From positions 3,838,726-3,894,799 of the forward strand of contig NC_057752.1 of the NCBI RefSeq assembly GCF_004010195.1: a stretch of 56,074 bases of DNA, written 5' to 3'. The DNA is from Chiloscyllium plagiosum (lineage: Eukaryota). A model generated the notes under the pieces. The model saw only the letters and a list, made by a program, of their open reading frames with translations, was not told the origin of the DNA and did no database searches. Within the stretch, counting starts at the first letter, position 1; each line of letters begins with the position of its first letter. This document shows positions 15,153-56,074 of the stretch, in pieces. A program made the translations under genes and the position numbers.

Positions 15153-15272
15153 GTTTACAAAAAAAAAGCAAACAATGCTTTCAGAACCAAGGCTGCTGCA
15201 TAGTTCTGAGAAAGACAAGCTAACATGTACTTGATAGCTGTCAAGACAGTTCATTGAGAAATTCTCAGACTC

Positions 15273-15995
15273 GAGGTTGTAAGTTTGTTCGCTGAGCTGG
15301 AAGGTTTGCTCTCAGACGTTTCATCACCATGCTGGGTAACATCATCAGTGAGCCTCTGTTGAAGCACTGGTGTTCTGTCCTGCTTGCTACTTATGTGTCT
15401 TGGTCTGTTCGGGTGGGTGATCCCCACCCCAGTTTTTTCTCTCAGAAGTTGGTAAATGGGGTCCAAATCAATGTGTTTGTTGATGGAGTTCCGATTCGAA
15501 TATGTAAATGACACCTTTGTCATCACAAAACGGAACAAATTAGAAGAAACCCACAAACACATAAACAACATCCTTACTGGTATAAACTTCACCAAAGAGG
15601 AAGAGAACAACTAGCCACCAAAATACAAGACCCGCTTTCACTAGTATCCTTACACACAGATGACGATGGACACCACTTCGACTGGCACAGCACATCCACC
15701 CTGGGACAGGCTAAACAGAGACATGCACGGGAATTCCTAGAAGCCTGGCATTCAAACCAGTACTCCATCAACAAATGCATTGATTTGGACCCATTTACTA
15801 ACCTCTCAGAAAACAAACCGGACGTGATGTCACCCACCCTAACAGACAGGTAAATAGAAAACAGGACAGAACACCAGCACTTCACGGAGGCTCACTGATA
15901 ATGTTACCTAGCATGGTGACAAAATGTCTGAGAACAAACCCACCAGCTCAGCAAGCAAACTTACAACCTGAACTACAAATCTCCTCAAAAACCGC
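15273..15995 (+). mobile_element. Penelope-like element family B with inverted left arm and 12-bp TSD
   Basis: 15273-~15500 is the reverse complement of the 3' end at ~15750-15970. RT fragment YVNDTFVITKRNKLEETHKHINNILTGINFTKEE and GIY-YIG tail AREFLEAWHS. Direct repeat ATTCTCAGACTC at 15261-15272 and 15996-16007. Confidence 0.85.
15315..15348 (-). ncRNA. Minimal hammerhead ribozyme motif (core intact)
   Basis: ctca-CTGATGA-T-GTTACC-cagcat-GGTGAT-GAAAC-GTC-tgag: stem I ctca/tgag, stem II GTTACC/GGTGAT, palindromic stem III ACGT, GUC triplet. Confidence 0.75.
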
Positions 15996-16054
15996 ATTCT
16001 CAGACTCTTTTAATTCCTTCATACTATTAATATAAGGTGTCATGCTGATTTCTT

Positions 16055-19307: not shown

Positions 19308-19540
19308 AAGAGGAGTGTGACTGTATCATCAAGAATGGAGATTAAAAACCGCTATCCACCCATAGTAAATTAACTATAAAGAATATCTTAAAACCATGTA
19401 CAGTAGCTTGACTGTTTTTTGTTTAGTCGAGTGTTTTTTAAACCCAGATTGCATACGATTTCACCCATATCAATAATTCTGGAACAACAGGGCCCAATAG
19501 AATGAATGCTCCATCTCCACCAACTATGCATAAAGAGTTT

Positions 19541-20203
19541 TGAGAAGGTTTGTAGCTCAGGTTGAGGTTCTGGATGTAGGTTTGCTTGCTGAGCTGGAAG
19601 ATTCATTTTCACACGTTTTGGCATCATACTAGGTAACATCTTCAGCCCACAAGCCCACCATCAGCTAACACCCACACAGCAGCTCGTGAATTTGAAAGAC
19701 CCTATACAGACAACAAGCAAAACTAATGCCATTTACAAAATACCGTGCAAGAACTGTAACAAACATTGGAAAAACAGGCAGAAAACTAGCCACCAGGATA
19801 CATGAACACCAACTAGCCACAAAACGACATGACCCACTCTCACTAGTCTCCTTACCTACAGTTGAGGAAGGACACCACTTCGACTGGGACAACACATCCA
19901 TCCTAGGACAAGCCAAACAGAGACTCGCACGAGAATTCATAGAAGCATGGCATTCCAACCGGAACATACTCAACAAACAGATTGACCTGGACCCGATTTA
20001 CCACCCCCTAAGAAAAAGAACAGGAAATGACATCACCACAGGAAACAACATCACAAACCCAAAGAAACCCAAACATATAAATAGAAAGCAGGAATCATCA
20101 GCAGTGCTTCATCCGGAGGCTCACTGAAGATGTTACCCTAGTACGGTGACGAAATGTCTGGAAATGAACCTTCCAACTTAGCGAGCAAACCTACAACCTG
20201 TAT
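19541..20203 (+). mobile_element. Penelope-like element family B (GIY-YIG) with short inverted arm and 11-bp TSD
   Basis: NAIYKIPCKNCNKH then (frameshift) IGKTGRKLATRIHEHQLATKRHD...AREFIEAWHS. 19541-19646 is an inverted 3' end. ATAAAGAGTTT at 19530-19540 and 20204-20214. Confidence 0.85.
20124..20158 (+). ncRNA. Minimal hammerhead ribozyme motif (near intact)
   Basis: tca-CTGAAGA-T-GTTACC-ctagtac-GGTGAC-GAAAT-GTC-tgg. Confidence 0.65.
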
Positions 20204-21556
20204 ATAAAGAGTTTGGATAATCTCAACCCAGCTCTTGCTGCATACAAATTCAAAGCACAAAACTGTCTATAGCCCCATATTAAATAACAATGCAATATTT
20301 CATTCCTTCTGTGAGCACACTGGTTATTAGGAGCAACTTCCCACATGTACTGCAGTGCATCCAAATAATTTAATCCGAAACATAATGTTAAACTATTTAA
20401 AACGATGCAGTAAAATGACAAACAAATACTGCAAAGGAAGTGAAAATACCCTTCGCTCATAGAGAATATGTTGAATGAGACTGTTTTCCCATCCTTGGTC
20501 TTTACATATATCTTGCATTCCCACCTTTACAATCTGTGTTTTCACTGACATAAACTCAGAAAGTTTGACTCAGCACCCAGTTCAAACCAAACTGCAAGAA
20601 TTCTACTGAGTTACTTATTCTACAGCCAATCACCCACTGCCAATAGTCAGAGGTGGTTGGCAAAATGTAGCTGATTGGTTTGTGCATTTGTGACCAGTCA
20701 TGGATGATACAGTGAGAAGTCTTTGAATTGTTGAAAGGGCAGGTGGTCTCTCTCTCTCTCTCTCCCCCTGTTAATCACCTATTACCAATAATTACCAATT
20801 GTCAGAGTAGTAAACACCTATCGCTTTCCAATCTTGCAAAAGCAGGCAAGTCTCCCTGAGCTGACTGTCTCTGAAAATAACTATTGTTGCTGTGCAGAGA
20901 AAGCATTTTTTTTAACATTATCATCTTGAGGTAGATCTGATGCTCAGGTATCCTTTGTCAGTCCATAGTATGAATGGTTGTGCTGCATGAAAGTGTTAGG
21001 TTCACTCGTGAATTTCCAATGGAGCTAGCTAGCATTACTCAGTTACTTTTCCCACCCCAACACCTTCAGTCATTATTCACAAGTAACGCATCATATTTGG
21101 AGAGAAGCTTTATTTACAGAGAGATTCATTTTGACCAATGCCACCTCTTTCTTGAGATGTGAGCCTCTTAGTGGTGAGGTCGTTGTTTCAATGTTTCAGC
21201 AATAGTAAATCCTACCAATTAAACCACCCTCAAATGAGAGCTGACAGATGTTATGAGAAACAATGGCATGGGAGGTTTTCCCTGCATTCAAGATTAAAAT
21301 GACTTCAGCCAAAGAGTGTCAATCAGGACCTATCCAATAGCAAAACAGAGGTGACTTAATTTGAAGGCTTTACACTGCTGAAGAGCTGGCATTAATGAAT
21401 CACTGTTGGCTTGAGCCGAAATCAAGATGCCTGCCTATTATCTAAACTTTCAGTTATTAAGCATGATTTGGAGATGCCGGTGTTGGACAGGGGTGTATAA
21501 AGTTAAAAATCACACAACACCAGGTTATAGTCCAACAGGTTTACTTGGAAGCACAC

Positions 21557-21586
21557 TAGCTTTTCGGAGTGACGCTCCTTCATCAG
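21557..21586 (-). ncRNA. Hammerhead motif, family C (one extra A after GAAA)
   Basis: cac-CTGATGA-A-GGAG-cgtca-CTCC-GAAAAG-CTA-gtg. Confidence 0.55.
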
Positions 21587-21612
21587 GTGATAGTGGAGGG
21601 CTCCACAATCAC

Positions 21613-21641
21613 CTGATGAAGAAGTGACACTCCGAAAGCTA
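21613..21641 (+). ncRNA. Hammerhead motif, family C (CUA triplet)
   Basis: cac-CTGATGA-A-GAAG-tgaca-CTCC-GAAAG-CTA-gtg: stem I cac/gtg, palindromic stem III AGCT, one stem II mismatch. Confidence 0.6.
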
Positions 21642-21771
21642 GTGTGCTTCCAATTAAACCTGTTGGACTATAACCTGGTGTTGTGTGATTTTTAACTTCA
21701 GTTATTAAGACATAGCAGGAAATCCTAACAGTACAGAGGCATCAACTATGTCACTGGCTGCTGAGAATCCT

Positions 21772-22212
21772 ATTCTGGATCAGTGGTGCTGGAAGAGCAC
21801 AGCAGTTCAGGCAGCATCAAAGGAGCTTTGAAATCGACGTTTCGGGCAAAAGCCCTTCATCAGGAATAAAGGCAGTGAGCCTGAAGCGTGGAGAGATAAG
21901 CTAGAGGAGGGTGGGGGTGGGGAGAAAGTAGCATAGAGTACAATGGGTGAGTGGGGGAGGAGATGAAGGGGATAGGTCAGGAAGGAGAGGGCAGAGTGGA
22001 TAGGTGGAAAAGGAGCTAGGCAGGTAGGACAAGTCTGGACAAGTCTGGACAAGTCATGGGGACAGTGCTGAGCTGGAAGTTTAGAACTAGGGTGAGGTGG
22101 GGGAAGGGGAAATGAGGAAACTGTTGAAGTCCACATTGATGCCCTGGGGTTGAAGTGTTCCGAGGTGGAAGATGAGGCGTTCTTCCTCCAGGTGTCTGGC
22201 GGTGAAGGAGGC
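21772..22212 (-). mobile_element. Penelope-like element family A 3' fragment
   Basis: Minus frame RHLEEERLIFHLGTLQPQGINVDFNSFLISP. Same layout as 1-490. Confidence 0.8.
21836..21863 (-). ncRNA. Minimal hammerhead ribozyme motif (best-preserved family A copy)
   Basis: CTGATGA-A-GGGC-tttt-GCCC-GAAAC-GTC: perfect core and perfect 4-bp stem II. Confidence 0.75.
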
Positions 22213-22635
22213 CACTTCATATAAAATAAATTGTTAAATCATGTAGAGATGGAGTAAAAAGTTAATTGATTAACTCAAGATGTATTTAGAGCTATCTTGC
22301 ACTACTGAAGACATTTCTAGTACAGTACTTTTCTTTACTAATCCCAACATTAAACCTTTTGACTATCTTTTGGTCCTCTTTAAAGATGATCCTTAAAATA
22401 TATCTCTGTTTTTGGTCACCGATCTCAATAGCTCCAGTTATGGCTCGGTGTCAAATTTTGCCTGGCAATCGCTTCCACAAAGCGCTTGGGACTTTTCCTA
22501 TGTTAAAGGCATTCTAGAAATAAAGGTTGTTGTAATACATGAACGTCAAAAAGCAGAAGCTGACAAAAATTTCAAAACAAACTGTTCCGACCCATTCAGA
22601 AAATTGCACTAATTCTCAAGGCCCACTATTCCTGG

Positions 22636-27885: not shown

Positions 27886-28552
27886 TACATCCCATAAAAT
27901 CTCTTGGCCTCAGGTCAAACGTGGGCAAGGAAAGCTCCCTCTCCCTCACATACTGCCCCCGCCCCCACCCCCAGCATTGGCTGATGAATCAGTACTCTTC
28001 CATGTTTAACATCATTTGGAGCAAGCATTGAGGGTGGCCAAGGTAAAGGATGTACTCTGGGTGGGAGATTTCAATGTCCACTCCAAATGTAGCTTGATAG
28101 CACCATTACAGATCGAGCTGGTTGGGTCCGAAAGGACATAGGTGCTAGACTGGGTCTGTGGCAGTTGGTAAGGGAACCAGCTAGAGGGGAAAAATATACT
28201 CTGACTCATCACCACCTATCTACCTGTCACATGTATATCCATCCATGACCGCACTGGCAAGAGTGACCATTACATAAGCCTTGTGAAGATGAAGTCACAC
28301 CTTCACACTGAGGAGATTTTCCATTGTGTTAGATGGCACTCCACAGTGCTAAATGGTGCAGACTATGAACACCTCTATCAACTCAAAACTGGAGATCCAT
28401 GAGTCACTGTGGGCCATCAGCAACAGTAGAATTGTATTCAATCACAGGCTGTAATGTCATGGCCCAGCATATCTTCCTCTTTACTATTACCATCAAACCA
28501 GGAGATCGACTCTGGTTCGATGGAGAGTGCAAGAGGGCATACCAGGAGCAGC

Positions 28553-28751
28553 GTCGAGAATGTGGTGCTGGAAAAGCACATCAGGTCAGGTAGCATCCGA
28601 GGAGCAGGAGAATCGATGTTCATCAGAAGGGCTTATGCCCGAAACGTCGATTCTCCTGCTCCTCGGATGCTACCTGACCTGCTGTACTTTTCCAGCACCA
28701 CACTCTCAGCTCTGATCTCCAGCATCTGCATGGCTCACTTTTTCCAAGTTG
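28553..28751. mobile_element. Palindromic PLE family A mini-element with 14-bp TSD
   Basis: Inverted arms ~28556-28620 and ~28643-28708. ATACCAGGAGCAGC at 28539-28552 and 28752-28765. The hammerhead remnant GAAGGGCTTATGCCCGAAACGTC starts at the inversion junction. Confidence 0.8.
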
Positions 28752-30449
28752 ATACCAGGAGCAGCAACAGACATATCTAAAAATGAGATGTTAATCTTGT
28801 GAAGCGACAATACAGGACTGCTTGTGCCAAACAGCACAATCAGCAATTGATAGACAGAGCCAACAGATTCCACAACCAATGTATTGGATCTAAGCTCTGC
28901 CATCCTGCCACATCCAGTCATGAATGGTGGTGAACACAATTAAATAGCTCACTGAAGGAGGAGACTCCACAAATATTCTCATCCTCAATGATGGGGAGTG
29001 CACCACATTCTTGATAAAAACACAGCTTAAATACTTGCACCTATCTTCAGTGAGAACTGCCGAATAGATGATCCATCTCAGTCTATTCCTGGTCCCCAGC
29101 ATTACAGATACCAGTCTTCAATCGATTTAATTCACTTCACATGATATCAAGAAACAACTGAAGGTTCTGGATACTGCAAAGGCTACGGGCCCTGACAACA
29201 TTCCAGCAAGTGTACTGAAGACTTGTGCTCCCAACCTTGCCGCTCCCCTAGCCAAGCTGGTCCAGTACAGTTACAACACTGACATCCAACCGACAATGGG
29301 GAAAGTTGCCCAGGCATGTTCTATACATAAAAAATATCGCCTGGATATATTTGATTAATTACTGCCCCATCGATCTGCATCAATCATCAGTGAAGTGATG
29401 GAAGGTGTCATCCACAGTGCTATCAAGCAGCACCTGCTCAGCAATAACCTGCTCAGTGACACCCAGTTTGGGTTCCACCGGGGTCACTCAGCTCCTGACC
29501 TCATTATAGCCTTGGTTCAAACATGGACAAAAGAGCTGAATTCCAGAGGGGAGGGGAGAGGGACAGCCCTTGACATCAAGGCTGCATTCGACTGAGTGTA
29601 GCATCAAGGAGCCCTAGCAAACTGGAATCAGTGGATATTGGAGGTAAACTCGCCGCTGGTTGGAGTCATACCTGGCATATTGGGAGATGGTTGTGGTTGC
29701 TTAAGGTCAGTCATCTCAGCTCCAGGACATCTCTTCTGGAGTTCCTCAGGATAGTGTCCGCGCCCCAACCATCTTCAGCTGTTTATCAATGATTTTCCCC
29801 CTCCATCATAAGGTCAGATGTGGGGATGTTCGCCGACAATTGCACAATGTTCAGCACCATTTGTGACTCCTCAGATACCGAAGCAGTCCATGTTCAAATG
29901 CAACAAGATCTGGACAGTGTCCAAGCTTGGGCTGACAAGTGGCAAGTAACATTCACACCACACAAATGCCAGGCTATGACAATCTCCAATAAGAGACACT
30001 CTAATCACCGTCCCATGACATTCAATCGTGTTATCATCATTGAATCCCCCACTATGAACATCCTGAGGATTACCATTGACCAGAAACTGAACTGAGCTCA
30101 CCACATAAACACAGTGGCTACAAGAGCAGGGTCAGATGCTAGGAATACTGCGGTGAATAACACCTCCTGACTCCCCAAAGCCTGTCCACCATCTACAAGG
30201 CATAATACAGGAGTCCGATGGAATACTCCTCACTTGCCTGGATGGATGCAGCTCCAACAACACTTAAGAAGCTTGACACCATCCAGGACAAAGCTTCTGC
30301 TGTCAAATGTTCAAATTCTTCCATAAATGTTGCATGGTGATTGGTCTGGTCAAAGTTCCTTCATGACTGAAAATGGTTTTGAGCTTCTGAACCTAATGAA
30401 ACTGGTTTGGAATCTACAAAGCAAATAGATGTTAATGCTGTCTGATTTT

Positions 30450-44820: not shown

Positions 44821-45296
44821 CTCTCTTAGTTTAAGGGTCTCAGCCCCCTGCCACCACTGGAATTAATCCAGCTACAAACAAGCCTGTTGGCATGCTTCAT
44901 TCACAATAGCTGTGACCTTGCAGACTCGGGAGGAAGAGTGCTTGCTCAAACAAATACAACCAGTGCCTGAACGAGAAACTGGACTTCAGTCAGCGGTTCC
45001 CCTCTGTGAATCATCCCCTACCCCACGTTCCCCTGCAATCCCTGACATAAGAATCACTATGCTCCATCATTTACCTTTGTCTTGGACCCTCCAGAATCTT
45101 GGTCCTTCTGGAGTGCTCTTCCAGCAGCAGCCTCCGTGGCGCTGTTGAGCACAGTTCTTGTCAGATGCCAGCAACTCTCACAGGGCACGCCCAGATGGAC
45201 CTTCCCTGGAAAAGGTGGTAAGGGGTCGCTCACTAGCTCTCCAGTTGGCAAACAAGACCTCTGACATCGTAACAACCGTGTCTTTTTATTTCTCTG

Positions 45297-45485
45297 GGCA
45301 GCACAGTGGCTCAGTGGTTAGTAATACTGCCTCACAGGGCCAAGGGACCCGGACATGATTCCAGCCTTGGACAACTGTCTGCCTGGAGTTTGCACAGGTG
45401 ACAAAGGAGCAGCGCGCCAAAAGCTTGCGATTTCAAATAAACCTGTTGGACTATAACCTGGTGTTGTGTGATTTCTGACTTTGCA
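45297..45485 (+). mobile_element. Truncated HE1 SINE head followed by a family C PLE-related fragment
   Basis: GGCAGCACAGTGGCTCAGTGGTTAG head. From ~45398 a decayed hammerhead and AAACCTGTTGGACTATAACCTGGTGTTGTGTGATTT as in 21657-21692. Confidence 0.65.
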
Positions 45486-46690
45486 TAAATGGAGATGTAG
45501 CCTCCAACTAGTAGCTGATTAGTTTGTGGACTAGTGACCAGTTATTGATGACAAAGGCCCTCCACCTGCCAACAACTAATATGATAGGTTCTCAGGTAGT
45601 TGAACAGCCTGGGCCTGTGAACTAGATCGGATCTATGCAAGCTCAGGAGCTATTTTTGTTCTCCACAGGAAAACTCACTTTGAGCCTGAATAAATCAGTT
45701 TATTTTTCCTTCAGAAGTTGCTGCAAGTAGTGGCTTTTAGTTAAAAGAGTCTCTGACTTATTATCAGTGAAACAGTCATTCTGTGAATCCTGTAAACTAG
45801 TGGAAGCATCCAGAGAAGGAAGACTGAGAAACAGCATTCTTATTAGGACAAGAATTATCTCAGCAGATCCTGTGAATGGGGACTGCTGAACAGCTTTCCC
45901 AGATTTTCCTCTACCCATAACATCCTTCTTTTTCCCCTGCATGTGGTGACAGGGAGCTTATAAGGGGATTAGAGTTCTAACCAATAGACTTTTATGTCAA
46001 CGGTTCATAATTGTTTCACCAGAGTCTATTTACAAGTAATAACTAGTCATTCTTGTTAAGTACAGTAACCTGGTCTGTGCTTTCTGTCAACTTGGATCTG
46101 AAAGACAACTAGATTGGGGAATTCTATGTAGTTTAAAATCCTTAACTTTTGTGACAACTCCAGGAACAGTGGGGCTTAATTTCCTGCGCACCACCCTCGT
46201 GAGCTATGACTGACTCAACAAGGTTCTGTCTCACATTTTTATTCAAGGCAAAAACAGATATCTGATTCCTTACATAGATATGTCATAGTTTGTGCGAAGA
46301 TTTGTAGCTCGGGTGCTGGTTGTTGTGGTTCTGTTCGCCGAGCTGGAAGTTTTTGTTGCAAACGTTTCGTCCCCTGGCTAGGCGACATCATTAGTGCTTG
46401 GGAGCCTCCTGCGAAGCGCTTCTTTGATGTTTCCTCCGGTGTTTATAGTGGTCTGTCCCTGCCGCTTCCGGTTGTCAGTTTCAGCTGTCCGCTGTAGTGG
46501 TTGGTATATTGGGTCCAGGTCGATGTGTTTGTTGATGGAGTTTGTGGATGAATGCCATGTCTCTAGGAATTCCCTGGCTGTTCTCTGTCTGGCTTGCCCT
46601 ATGATAGTAGTGTTGTCCCAGTCGAATTCATGTTGCCTGTCCTATATAGTGTTTAGTGCAGTCCTTGCATAGTATTTTGTACACTACATT

Positions 46691-47492
46691 NNNNNNNNNN
46701 NNNNNNNNNNNNNNNNNNNNNNNNNNNNNNNNNNNNNNNNNNNNNNNNNNNNNNNNNNNNNNNNNNNNNNNNNNNNNNNNNNNNNNNNNNNNNNNNNNNN
46801 NNNNNNNNNNNNNNNNNNNNNNNNNNNNNNNNNNNNNNNNNNNNNNNNNNNNNNNNNNNNNNNNNNNNNNNNNNNNNNNNNNNNNNNNNNNNNNNNNNNN
46901 NNNNNNNNNNNNNNNNNNNNNNNNNNNNNNNNNNNNNNNNNNNNNNNNNNNNNNNNNNNNNNNNNNNNNNNNNNNNNNNNNNNNNNNNNNNNNNNNNNNN
47001 NNNNNNNNNNNNNNNNNNNNNNNNNNNNNNNNNNNNNNNNNNNNNNNNNNNNNNNNNNNNNNNNNNNNNNNNNNNNNNNNNNNNNNNNNNNNNNNNNNNN
47101 NNNNNNNNNNNNNNNNNNNNNNNNNNNNNNNNNNNNNNNNNNNNNNNNNNNNNNNNNNNNNNNNNNNNNNNNNNNNNNNNNNNNNNNNNNNNNNNNNNNN
47201 NNNNNNNNNNNNNNNNNNNNNNNNNNNNNNNNNNNNNNNNNNNNNNNNNNNNNNNNNNNNNNNNNNNNNNNNNNNNNNNNNNNNNNNNNNNNNNNNNNNN
47301 NNNNNNNNNNNNNNNNNNNNNNNNNNNNNNNNNNNNNNNNNNNNNNNNNNNNNNNNNNNNNNNNNNNNNNNNNNNNNNNNNNNNNNNNNNNNNNNNNNNN
47401 NNNNNNNNNNNNNNNNNNNNNNNNNNNNNNNNNNNNNNNNNNNNNNNNNNNNNNNNNNNNNNNNNNNNNNNNNNNNNNNNNNNNNNNNNNNN
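46691..47492. other. Assembly gap (802 N)
   Basis: Run of n characters. Confidence 1.
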
Positions 47493-47984
47493 ACTAATGT
47501 AGTGTACAAAATACTATGCAAGGACTGCACAAAACACTATATAGGACAAACAGGAAGACAGCTAACAATCCGCATACATGAACATCAACTAGCCACGAAA
47601 CGACACGACCAGCTATCCTTAGTAGCCACACACGCAGACAACAAGCAACATGAATATAACTGGGACAACACTACTATCATAGGGCAAGCCAGACAGAACA
47701 GCCAGGGCAGCTATCCTTTGTAGCCACACACGCAGACAACAAGCAACATGAATTCGACTGGGACAACACTACTATCATAGGGCAAGCCAGACAGAGAACA
47801 GCCAGGGAATTCCTAGAGGCATGGCATTCATCCACAAACTCCATCAACAAACACATCGACCTGGACCCAATATACCAACCACTACAGCGGACAGCTGAGA
47901 CTGACAACCGGAAGCAGCAGGGACAGACCACTATAAACACCGGAGGAAACATCAAAGAAGCGCTTCGCAGGAGGCTCCCAAGCA

Positions 47985-48018
47985 CTGATGATGTCGCCTA
48001 GCCAGGGGATGAAACGTT
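47985..48018 (+). ncRNA. Minimal hammerhead ribozyme motif (core intact, GUU triplet)
   Basis: gca-CTGATGA-T-GTCGCC-tagcca-GGGGAT-GAAAC-GTT-tgc. The mirror copy at 46361-46394(-) has CTAATGA. Confidence 0.7.
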
Positions 48019-49764
48019 TGCAACAAAAACTTCCAGCTCGGCGAACAGAACCACAACATAGATATGTCATACCATTCATTTATCCCATGTCACATTGGTT
48101 ACCCTGAAGAGTATAACCAATGGTGAGAATCCTTGGTGTAAGCCATTGACTGTGTTCCTCTAAAATAAAGACACTTCGACACATTGCAGGCAATTTTAAC
48201 CAAACCAATTCATTGGGATAGTGATGGAATCAGAGACAATGCTGCTTTTACAACCCACTTGGTTTTCGTTTTTCTTGATAAAGCTGGAATAAGTCACAAA
48301 TATAACAGATAGCTATCAACTCATGTGTCATTTATTCTCTCCTGCTTTCCACCTTATCCTGTCTCTTCGCATTCCCTGCCTCTGTACTTGTCATCAACTT
48401 GAAATGTTAACTTTTCTCTTGCCACCAATGCCACCTGGCCTGCTCAGAGTGTTTCCAGTATTTTCTGTTGTTATGATTCCAGCTGATGTTAATATTGGAC
48501 ACATCAGATCCCAGAGTGAAATCTGGCTTGTTAGATAATGAAACTTTTTTTTTTGGTATGGAGGTCAGTTACTGAACACATTCACAAGAGGCTGCCAATG
48601 TACTTTGAGCACAAAGCATAAAATGCGTATTAAATCAGAAGAAGATGAACTATATTACACAAGACAAAACAAAAGTTTGTTTAATATCTGCAGAACTATT
48701 CAAACTCAGCTCATCACTTCTAGGTCGTAAAACCTCATAAAGCAGGCACCACTCACAGAACGAAACTACACATGTCTTCCCCTTCTTAACATGCAAAATA
48801 TAAAGTCTAAATTCAACTTAAAGTTATACATCAATCTTAATGTTTTTACATCAAGGAGATGTTGTATTATTTTGGTCCCAAACTTAAGGAATATGAGTTT
48901 GATAAATGCAAGGCTTCATTCTGCATCACAAATAATTTAAAGGGTCATATTGTGTGGAGTGTAAATGTGGTGTTCCACATACTCCTGTGAATTTTGAATC
49001 AAGTGAGTTAGGTTAAAATTACCCCCATGGCGCAAAATAAAGTAATACAAGGTATATTGCAAACCCTGAGCATGCTACACATGCTCAACCATGCTTTAAA
49101 TCGTAAATTGTGGGGAAAGTGAATTATTAAACTGTAATCTGCTGGTGAACACAAATAGAGCTAGGAGATGGTCTGAATCAAAACAATGAAAAATATTTCA
49201 ATAGTATTGCATCATTGTCTGCTATAAATTCTGAATAAATGAACATGTTGTGCAAGCACAGTGAATGCATGTATAAAACCCTCCCTCGCTCATCGTGTAC
49301 TTCCTCATTATATAGAATTCCTGTAACCATGCTATTCCTGACTCAGGCATAAATCATTTCAAGTTAATGGTTTTCACTGCACAGCACACCAAGTGCTGTC
49401 AAACTGCTGCCTAATTTCATTCAGAGGCAGCAAAATACAGTGAATGCCTAATCTTTTACACAATCATATACTTTAGTAAAGGACCACATTTGGAATAATG
49501 GCCTTGTACTACAATAAAGCCTTTACAAGGCTATATGGCTGAACAGACTTAGGCAAAAGGAAAGATGAGGTCAGCTGGCCGAGATGCATTTCCTACTTTT
49601 ATGCAGAGTTTGTGGAAATTCCAAAGGGAACAGTGACCATCAGTCCACATTGTTTAACACCAGTTTGCCATTGTGCTGAGACACAAAGGTCCCTCCGGGT
49701 TCAACTTATAATAAGACTCCTAAGGAAATGGGTTCGCAACCATGATGGAAAATCACAAGTTTCT

Positions 49765-55150: not shown

Positions 55151-55647
55151 AGCCTTGAAGGGAAGGGACAAACCCATGACAAAACAATTAATTAAAAGGG
55201 CTGTCACAAGTACAAGGGGCTGAATAGCTTTAGGAGTGCTATCATTTTTGATTCTATGAATCTCCGTGATTCCCTCTTGCCTGTTTGGCATATGAAAGAA
55301 CTCGGCACTCTTTGAAACGGCTGCATTGTAAATTGGAAATTTGTCTAACTTCACCTGCAGGCAATAGTCCCTGTCAACACAGCACGTGAGCAGCAGAACC
55401 CACACTGCACGCCTCTCATCTGCTGCTCCCAACCTCACTGTGGCTGGAACCTTCGGCAGAGTTTGGAATAAATTAACAGCACAGGTGTACAAGTCTAATT
55501 ATAACCCATTACCCCTGAATCATTATCTGCTACAGAGATCTTCATAAAATTAATTTTGTATTTGCTTTCAAGCCCTACAGCCACATAGCTGTGTATAATT
55601 TGATTTTACTTGGTTTCAAAATAAAAACGAGCATTCATTCATTTCAG

Positions 55648-55854
55648 GAGAAAGTGAGGACTGCAGATGCTGGAGATCAGAGTCGAGAGTGAGGCGCTGG
55701 AAAAGCACAGCAGGTCAGGCAGCATCCGAGGAGCAGGAAAATCGACATTCGGGCATAAGCCATTCCTGATGAAGGGCTTATGCCCAAAATGTCGATTCTC
55801 CTGCTCCTCAGCTGCTGCCTGACCTGCTGTGCTTTTCCAGCGCCTCACTCTCGG
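55648..55854. mobile_element. Palindromic PLE family A mini-element with 14-bp TSD
   Basis: Inverted arms ~55684-55760 and ~55775-55853. TTCATTCATTTCAG at 55634-55647 and 55855-55868. Decayed hammerhead at 55766-55793. Confidence 0.8.
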
Positions 55855-55868
55855 TTCATTCATTTCAG

Positions 55869-56074
55869 GAGAAAGTGAGGACTGCAGATGCTGGGGATCA
55901 GAGCTTAAAAATGTGTTGCTGGAAAAGCGCAGCAGGTCAGGCAGCATCAAAGGAGGAGAATCGAAGTTTCAGGCATAAGCCCTTCTTCAGGAATGAGGAG
56001 GGTGTGCCAAGCAGGCTAAGGTAAAAGGTAGGGAGGAGGGATTTGGGGGAGGGGCGTTGGGAATGCGATAGGTG
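55869..56074 (-). mobile_element. PLE family A 3' end inserted at the same target site; runs off the window
   Basis: Starts with the same GAGAAAGTGAGGACTGCAGATGCTGG tail. Hammerhead variant CTGAAGA-A-GGGC-ttat-GCCT-GAAAC-TTC at 55963-55990(-). Confidence 0.75.

Follow-up and report, generated by a model that had tools for sequence, protein, structure and literature searches.

A 235-base hairpin with two opposed hammerhead motifs in the genome of Chiloscyllium plagiosum, most likely a minimal PLE insertion

What is the short palindrome at 21449-21709 in this stretch of Chiloscyllium plagiosum DNA (56,074 nucleotides, called the window below), which carries a hammerhead motif on each strand? 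A sequence-only reading had assigned it to a repeat family, family C, and had taken it for a non-autonomous, retrozyme-like derivative of a Penelope-like element (PLE) that propagates as a unit. We analysed its anatomy, its neighbours in the window and family C in public sequence runs. The element is very probably two 5'-truncated end pieces of one high-copy family placed head to head. It most likely represents an ordinary PLE insertion in its shortest form, one that has probably been dead from the time it arrived.

The hairpin element is a palindrome of 235 bases, and the flanking direct repeat TTCAGTTATTAAG is exact over 13 bp at 21449-21461 and 21697-21709, as had been read before. Because the first 2 letters of this repeat also match the right-arm end, the duplication length is 11-13 bp; the 13-bp duplication is 77% A+T. 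Of 2930 random pairs of windows with comparable size and spacing, 2 shared a 13-mer. A contig of run X1 (record 1; the runs are described below) covers the left flank, the duplication and the start of the tail (21250-21484), and a contig of run X9 (record 24) covers 21675-21773 on the right with 1 differing letter. The inverted arms (21500-21598 and 21601-21698) are identical in 93 of 99 columns, with 5 substitutions and 1 indel, which bears out the inversion and makes the arms slightly longer than the approximately 90 bp first given. The left arm lies on the minus strand and its family match reaches 21603, while the right arm is a second end piece on the plus strand, without tail. The overlap of the arm ends gives a putative 3-nt microhomology at the inversion junction, common to both arms (21601-21603). 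The fold of the element has -171.4 kcal/mol (z = -20.5), which was equalled by 0 of 200 shuffles. The extension on the left arm alone, earlier estimated at about 35 nt, measured 38 nt (21462-21499, minus strand), and no ORF of at least 120 aa overlaps the element, as expected from its description as non-coding.

Each arm carries one CUGAUGA...GAAA core in which an AGCU palindrome stands where helix III would be, and the two lie on opposite strands. The sequence-only reading of a hammerhead on each strand was right in this respect, with one lesion in each motif. The minimal type I motif on the plus strand (21610-21644, predicted cut after 21641) has an A-C mismatch in helix II at 21622, where G makes up 89% of X1 depth. 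The minus-strand motif (21554-21589, predicted cut after 21557) has an additional A in GAAA, which is absent from 78% of X1 depth. The family majority is therefore intact at both lesion sites. Rfam gave no hammerhead at gathering score in the window and none at E up to 10 in 21440-21900, so the hammerhead call rests on the sequence and on the description of minimal hammerheads in PMC4209133. Twelve weak Rfam matches, all to generic hairpin models and below their own gathering scores, were rejected.

Comparison of the window with itself revealed other inverted insertions, and six were examined in all: this element, two from family A and three from family B. Each of the six is flanked by a duplication of 11-16 bp, overhangs on one side by 25-41 nt and encloses 199-1768 bp, and three of the other five hold endonuclease sequence inside. 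One of the four frames scanned, in the interior of family B, gave a weak Pfam GIY-YIG match (E 0.0027, below the cut-off), and Pfam gave nothing on the family A open frames. The homolog search with the family B frame returned 12 proteins, all labelled carpet sharks; when 4 of them were rescanned, 3 matched the RT model and 2 also matched GIY-YIG weakly. Six insertions of the same build, together with the RT and GIY-YIG homologs of family B, indicate that the anatomy of the element is the usual look of PLE-type insertions here.

The family A hairpin at 28539-28765 has a 14-bp duplication, a right-side tail and an asymmetric centre, and no whole hammerhead core in either arm. The other family A hairpin (55634-56074) also has a 14-bp duplication, whose right copy is directly followed by the tail of another family A copy that seems to have used the same target; the longest direct match there is 40 nt as this tail follows, and the first 14 letters were taken as the duplication. 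A young family B insertion lies at 46272-48071, with 320-bp arms that have 6 differences, a 16-bp duplication and a 36-nt tail; about 100 bp are duplicated within its GIY-YIG-like frame, and an assembly gap interrupts the middle of the insertion. The inverted family B insertions at 15261-16007 and 19530-20214 are older, with duplications of 12 and 11 bp, respectively. On the minus strand, 73 bp to the right of the element, starts a family A end (21783-22238) that includes a hammerhead and body sequence and is unrelated in sequence to family C.

To the left of the young family B insertion, the window holds the one other family C piece found in it, a single decayed arm that ends at the short terminus (45404-45482, plus strand), for which both a tail and a duplication were searched and neither found. 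This arm is a 2-nt deletion variant and directly follows a repeat piece (together 45290-45482) that we take to be SINE-like. The earlier statement that no autonomous family C partner is visible in the window holds. A 16-nt motif of the upstream family C sequence was not found in the window, and a protein-coding parent of family C (RT or endonuclease) was found neither in the window nor in the scanned collections. Family C did not appear by exact pattern in metagenomes (25 nt), prokaryote genomes or viral contigs; one 20-nt pattern match (L001) had no further likeness and was rejected as chance. As no RT or endonuclease of family C was found, its assignment to the PLEs is drawn from anatomy and analogy.

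To see the family beyond the window, four public runs were aligned to 21250-21785 at 85% likeness, the contigs of X1, X9 and X15 and the raw RNA reads of X21. The alignment took in 62,149 contigs from organism A, 66,693 from B and 10,837 from C, along with 2,445 raw RNA reads from A; family C is a very high copy repeat family. It has two fixed outer termini about 37 nt apart, the tail end at 21462-3 and the short end at 21497-9 with its mirror at 21696-7, and both were seen in three organisms. In X1, 405 loose ends lay at the tail end and 426 + 1003 + 282 at the short end, and the flanks beyond the termini are mutually unrelated and AT-rich (agreement 0.34-0.37). Since the loose ends pile up at two termini, the tail belongs to the family as such and is what lies between its two preferred ends. 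Loose ends of X21 run into upstream family sequence at the inner side of the arms (205 reads behind 21603, and 164 in front of 21601), which means that each arm is the truncated end of a longer sequence. The organism B contig over 21675-21773 and the 6 arm differences suggest an old insertion common to two species; 22 letters of this contig are on the element side, fewer than the 31 of the bridging rule.

The sequence-only reading had proposed to tabulate inversion points and had named different points in every copy as evidence against a propagating unit. At least 589 joints were counted in the contigs (some in X1 and X9 uncounted), and 15 of them were listed. Fourteen of these 15 span the centre, each at a different position pair, and skip it by 38-134 nt, so that, judged on the listed joints, neither the centre nor the length is uniform across copies. 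The best-supported listed joint had a depth of 372 in 4 contigs (unique flank depth 8.5), and 450 joint entries carry letters between the two sides. Among the 14 listed centre-crossing joints, two whole hammerhead cores were kept in none, one core in 4 and no core in 10. No empty insertion site was among the listed joints (15 of 589). A joint shows only where a copy differs from the reference element, and copies with the same junction yield none; the listed joints represent shorter hairpins. The depth at 21607 was 2.8%, 2.0% and 5.1% of the depth summed with its mirror place in X1, X9 and X15, so copies with exactly this junction could make up at most about 2-5% of summed depth, a rough depth ratio and not a copy number, which still allows many copies.

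This bears on the best-placed alternative, a small non-autonomous subfamily in which the 235-bp hairpin would be transcribed and re-inserted as a unit by the family protein. Such a subfamily could sit in the 2-5% of family depth that the bound leaves unexplained, its own copies would give no joint, some joints do recur in two or three organisms, and sequence other than their own can be mobilised in trans by the cis sequences of PLEs (PMC3846280). We nevertheless consider it unlikely. All 14 listed centre-crossing joints differ; at 21607, 164 of about 236 X21 reads continue into upstream family sequence and not into the mirror arm; folding predicts a sense arm hidden within a duplex; and the build is head-to-head, not tandem. 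That 0 of 24 listed pieces bridge the centre is weak evidence, because contigs break at hairpins. With all the listed inversion points differing, the earlier idea of a propagating retrozyme-like unit is left unsupported.

A slightly less probable alternative starts from a longer PLE insertion with an inverted end, whose interior was later deleted between 3-nt microhomologies. The microhomology at the junction and the longer inverted insertions in the window would agree with it, and microhomology-mediated deletions disable many Adineta Penelope copies (PMC3846280), but such a deletion would have to produce a near-perfect palindrome, short hairpins are common in both family C and family A, and extra letters are present at many of the joints. 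A MITE of the DNA-transposon type whose terminal inverted repeats are long, suggested by a short, non-coding, palindromic, duplication-flanked sequence of high copy number, is scarcely credible in view of ends that are asymmetric by 38 nt where symmetric inverted repeats at both duplications would be expected, two family termini, varying centres, a PLE-type hammerhead, and neighbouring PLE-type insertions with variable 11-16 bp duplications; the sequence-only reading had also preferred PLE retrotransposition over a MITE, and the tail, the duplication and the hammerhead agree with that choice.

We therefore return to the minimal PLE insertion. It draws directly on the observed anatomy, on the two fixed family termini, on inversion points that are scattered, on neighbouring families built alike and on the presence in a second species. 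For the mechanism, the Anolis PLE offers a model: its protein cuts and extends both strands and prefers AT-rich DNA, and two internal RNA start sites bound the tail; the RNA is needed to +172, initiation is at +111-118, and hammerhead cleavage is not needed (PMC11167929). By analogy, the family RT/GIY-YIG protein would nick an AT-rich target on each strand, with the nicks 11-13 nt apart, and so give rise to the duplication. Reverse transcription would start within the RNA at two sites, one 57 nt and the other 95 nt beyond the hammerhead cut, which would give the tail. Both cDNAs would then stop early, after about 100-140 nt, and might be joined via the 3-nt microhomology.

Whether the two arms come from two separately primed cDNAs or from fold-back copying of one cDNA is nearly balanced. 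We put two cDNAs at a little better than even, because fold-back would require a loop of 2 nt that folding does not predict, extra letters occur at many joints, and the arms differ in allele at family-polymorphic places (21592/21607 and 21572/21627). Fold-back, a little short of even, would fit the private variants common to both arms in 2 of 2 family A hairpins, compared with 9 of 34 unrelated pairs, which also point to one template; in PMC3846280, junction palindromes are read as self-priming. A small palindrome is built into the sequence at the inversion junction of the element; junctions could recur there as at a hotspot, which counts against our explanation as a whole.

As a minimal PLE insertion, the copy is likely unable to move again, since it is without family sequence beyond the start sites and its sense arm is predicted to be locked in a duplex of about 100 bp with the ribozyme unfolded. 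We propose that the two hammerheads are passengers of the family end piece.

Published PLE insertions, as described in the papers cited here, have much the same appearance. In Adineta, Penelope insertions have an inverted pLTR, a 31-bp tail and an 8-10 bp TSD (PMC3846280), an inverted 5'-truncated copy with a 30-40 bp tail is given as a general PLE feature (PMC8557442), and in Drosophila the PLE inverted repeats vary in size (PMC2377424). According to the same three sources, EN+ PLE insertions share with the element a head-to-head inverted 5'-truncated end, a one-sided 30-40 nt tail, a short duplication, a small palindrome at the inverted junction and an inverted-repeat size that varies among copies. 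The element itself shows a minimal hammerhead motif, the 38-nt one-sided tail, the variable-length head-to-head inverted copy and an AT-rich short duplication; direct pseudo-LTRs, which partial-tandem PLE copies form, are absent from this copy. It differs from EN+ PLE insertions in having no body or ORF, both halves being only about 100-140 nt, and its duplication (11-13 bp, 11-16 bp in the window) is longer than the 8-10 bp described for Adineta.

The family C motifs also resemble the minimal hammerheads of metazoan PLEs, which according to PMC4209133 have a type I core, an extra base before helix II, a G-C first pair of helix II and a loopless palindromic helix III. In Schistosoma such minimal hammerheads occur in pairs on opposite strands 100-700 bp apart (same source), whereas the two motifs of the element are only about 20 nt apart, have a helix II of 4 bp and a helix I of 3 bp, carry one lesion each, and are associated with a poly(A) signal 12 nt past the cut. 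Poseidon PAc from Anolis is like family C in that two internal starts define the tail and the targets are AT-rich. The ends lie within about 100 nt downstream of the hammerhead cut in both, at 57 and 95 nt in family C and at 85-92 nt for the preferred PAc site, a value we calculated from the numbers in PMC11167929. The PAc ORF starts in the hammerhead (same paper), whereas no ORF was found for family C.

The animal non-LTR retrozymes of bioRxiv 10.64898/2026.07.22.740005 are, like the element, short and non-coding, with a type I hammerhead, and they are PLE-derived, as the element most likely is. They are direct tandem repeats with one hammerhead per unit, whereas the element has inverted arms, a tail and a duplication, with the ribozymes on opposite strands. 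Same-strand direct tandem hammerhead units, which define a retrozyme, were thus not what we found. A route through circular RNA or monomer self-cleavage would meet the difficulty that the hammerhead is predicted to be masked in the hairpin.

The motifs point outward, so that the antisense arm is transcribed first on either strand. In folding of the full 261-nt RNA, all seven hammerhead pairs had a predicted probability of 0.000 on either strand, and forcing the hammerhead fold in the full hairpin cost 57.7 (plus strand) and 56.2 (minus strand) kcal/mol, compared with 10.0 and 4.4 kcal/mol in single arms. The ribozyme fold is therefore predicted to be masked by the antisense arm in read-through RNA of either strand, whose product would be a plain duplex of about 100 bp. 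A ribozyme-bearing hairpin RNA had been expected whichever strand is transcribed; read-through RNA would indeed fold into the hairpin, but the ribozyme in it is predicted to be unfolded. Only one sense hammerhead is present in each transcript, so that no transcript could be cut in a pair. Minimal hammerheads of this type were inactive as monomers in vitro (PMC4209133). Cofolding of two copies of each motif gave no clean hammerhead dimer with a program that does not model the core, and no pile of read starts or ends was listed for X21, whose poly(A)-primed library is a poor cleavage test.

The X21 reads, from a poly(A) single-cell run, gave a result on the 3' side of the hammerhead. Among its 2,445 reads, 924 listed loose ends were poly(A) or poly(T) runs (276 + 272 + 143 + 233), placed at 21670, 21673 and their mirrors, which are not among the listed loose ends of the DNA runs and where the reference sequence is not A-rich. 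Most of these reads are less than 95% alike to the locus, so they stem from other family copies and not from the locus of the element. The hexamer ATTAAA (21653-58, plus strand) starts 12 nt past the predicted hammerhead cut; its second letter is T or A in the family, which gives ATTAAA or AATAAA, and its left-arm counterpart is AGTAAA. Polyadenylation occurs about 30 nt past the predicted cut, at the family site 21670-73, which a GU-rich stretch follows (whole feature 21653-21693). A hexamer of this kind is present in 3 of 3 family C arms of the window and in 0 of 4 scanned arms of family A or B. We found no description of a PLE poly(A) signal in the literature searched; a hammerhead cutting just before a poly(A) signal is known from the Clec2 genes (PMC6765202).

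It is conceivable, though improbable in our judgement, that family C ends act as dispersed cassettes of ribozyme and poly(A) site, in which cleavage, by a dimer or aided by protein, would remove the poly(A) tail from the transcript at many shark loci, as in the Clec2 3' UTR hammerhead; use of the poly(A) site is seen in the reads, while cleavage and a regulatory role are hypothetical. If this were true, the AATAAA/ATTAAA signal would end the element's own RNA before the reverse-transcription start sites. A working family poly(A) site right after the hammerhead may matter for the annotation of shark 3' UTRs.

The single locus matters little, being an old and probably inert insertion of a sort described before. 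Taken together, minimal hairpins keep a record of where PLE insertion starts at its two sites and how the products are joined, which the PLE papers cited here call unresolved, and with so many copies a genome-wide comparison of arm against arm could separate twin priming from fold-back. We found no papers on these shark families or on stub-sized PLE hairpins; repeat databases were outside this search, and the family may already be catalogued there.

Two minor observations concern the proteins and the reads. Several annotated shark gene isoforms among the family B homologs (P0002, P0004, P0007-P0009 and P0011, e.g. MAP3K7, EYA3-like and WBP2-like) hold sequence from the endonuclease region of family B, a sign that pieces of the element may have been exonised or wrongly annotated. 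We make no claim of A-to-I editing from the difference counts, as the reads come from mixed copies and are not matched to one individual's DNA; in X21 the counts were A>G 35, T>C 23, G>A 35 and C>T 23. In X15, over the region 21460-21700, A>G (22) and T>C (15) outnumbered G>A (8) and C>T (9), a pattern that the DNA runs do not have, and this excess could be due to a younger family, subfamily differences or editing.
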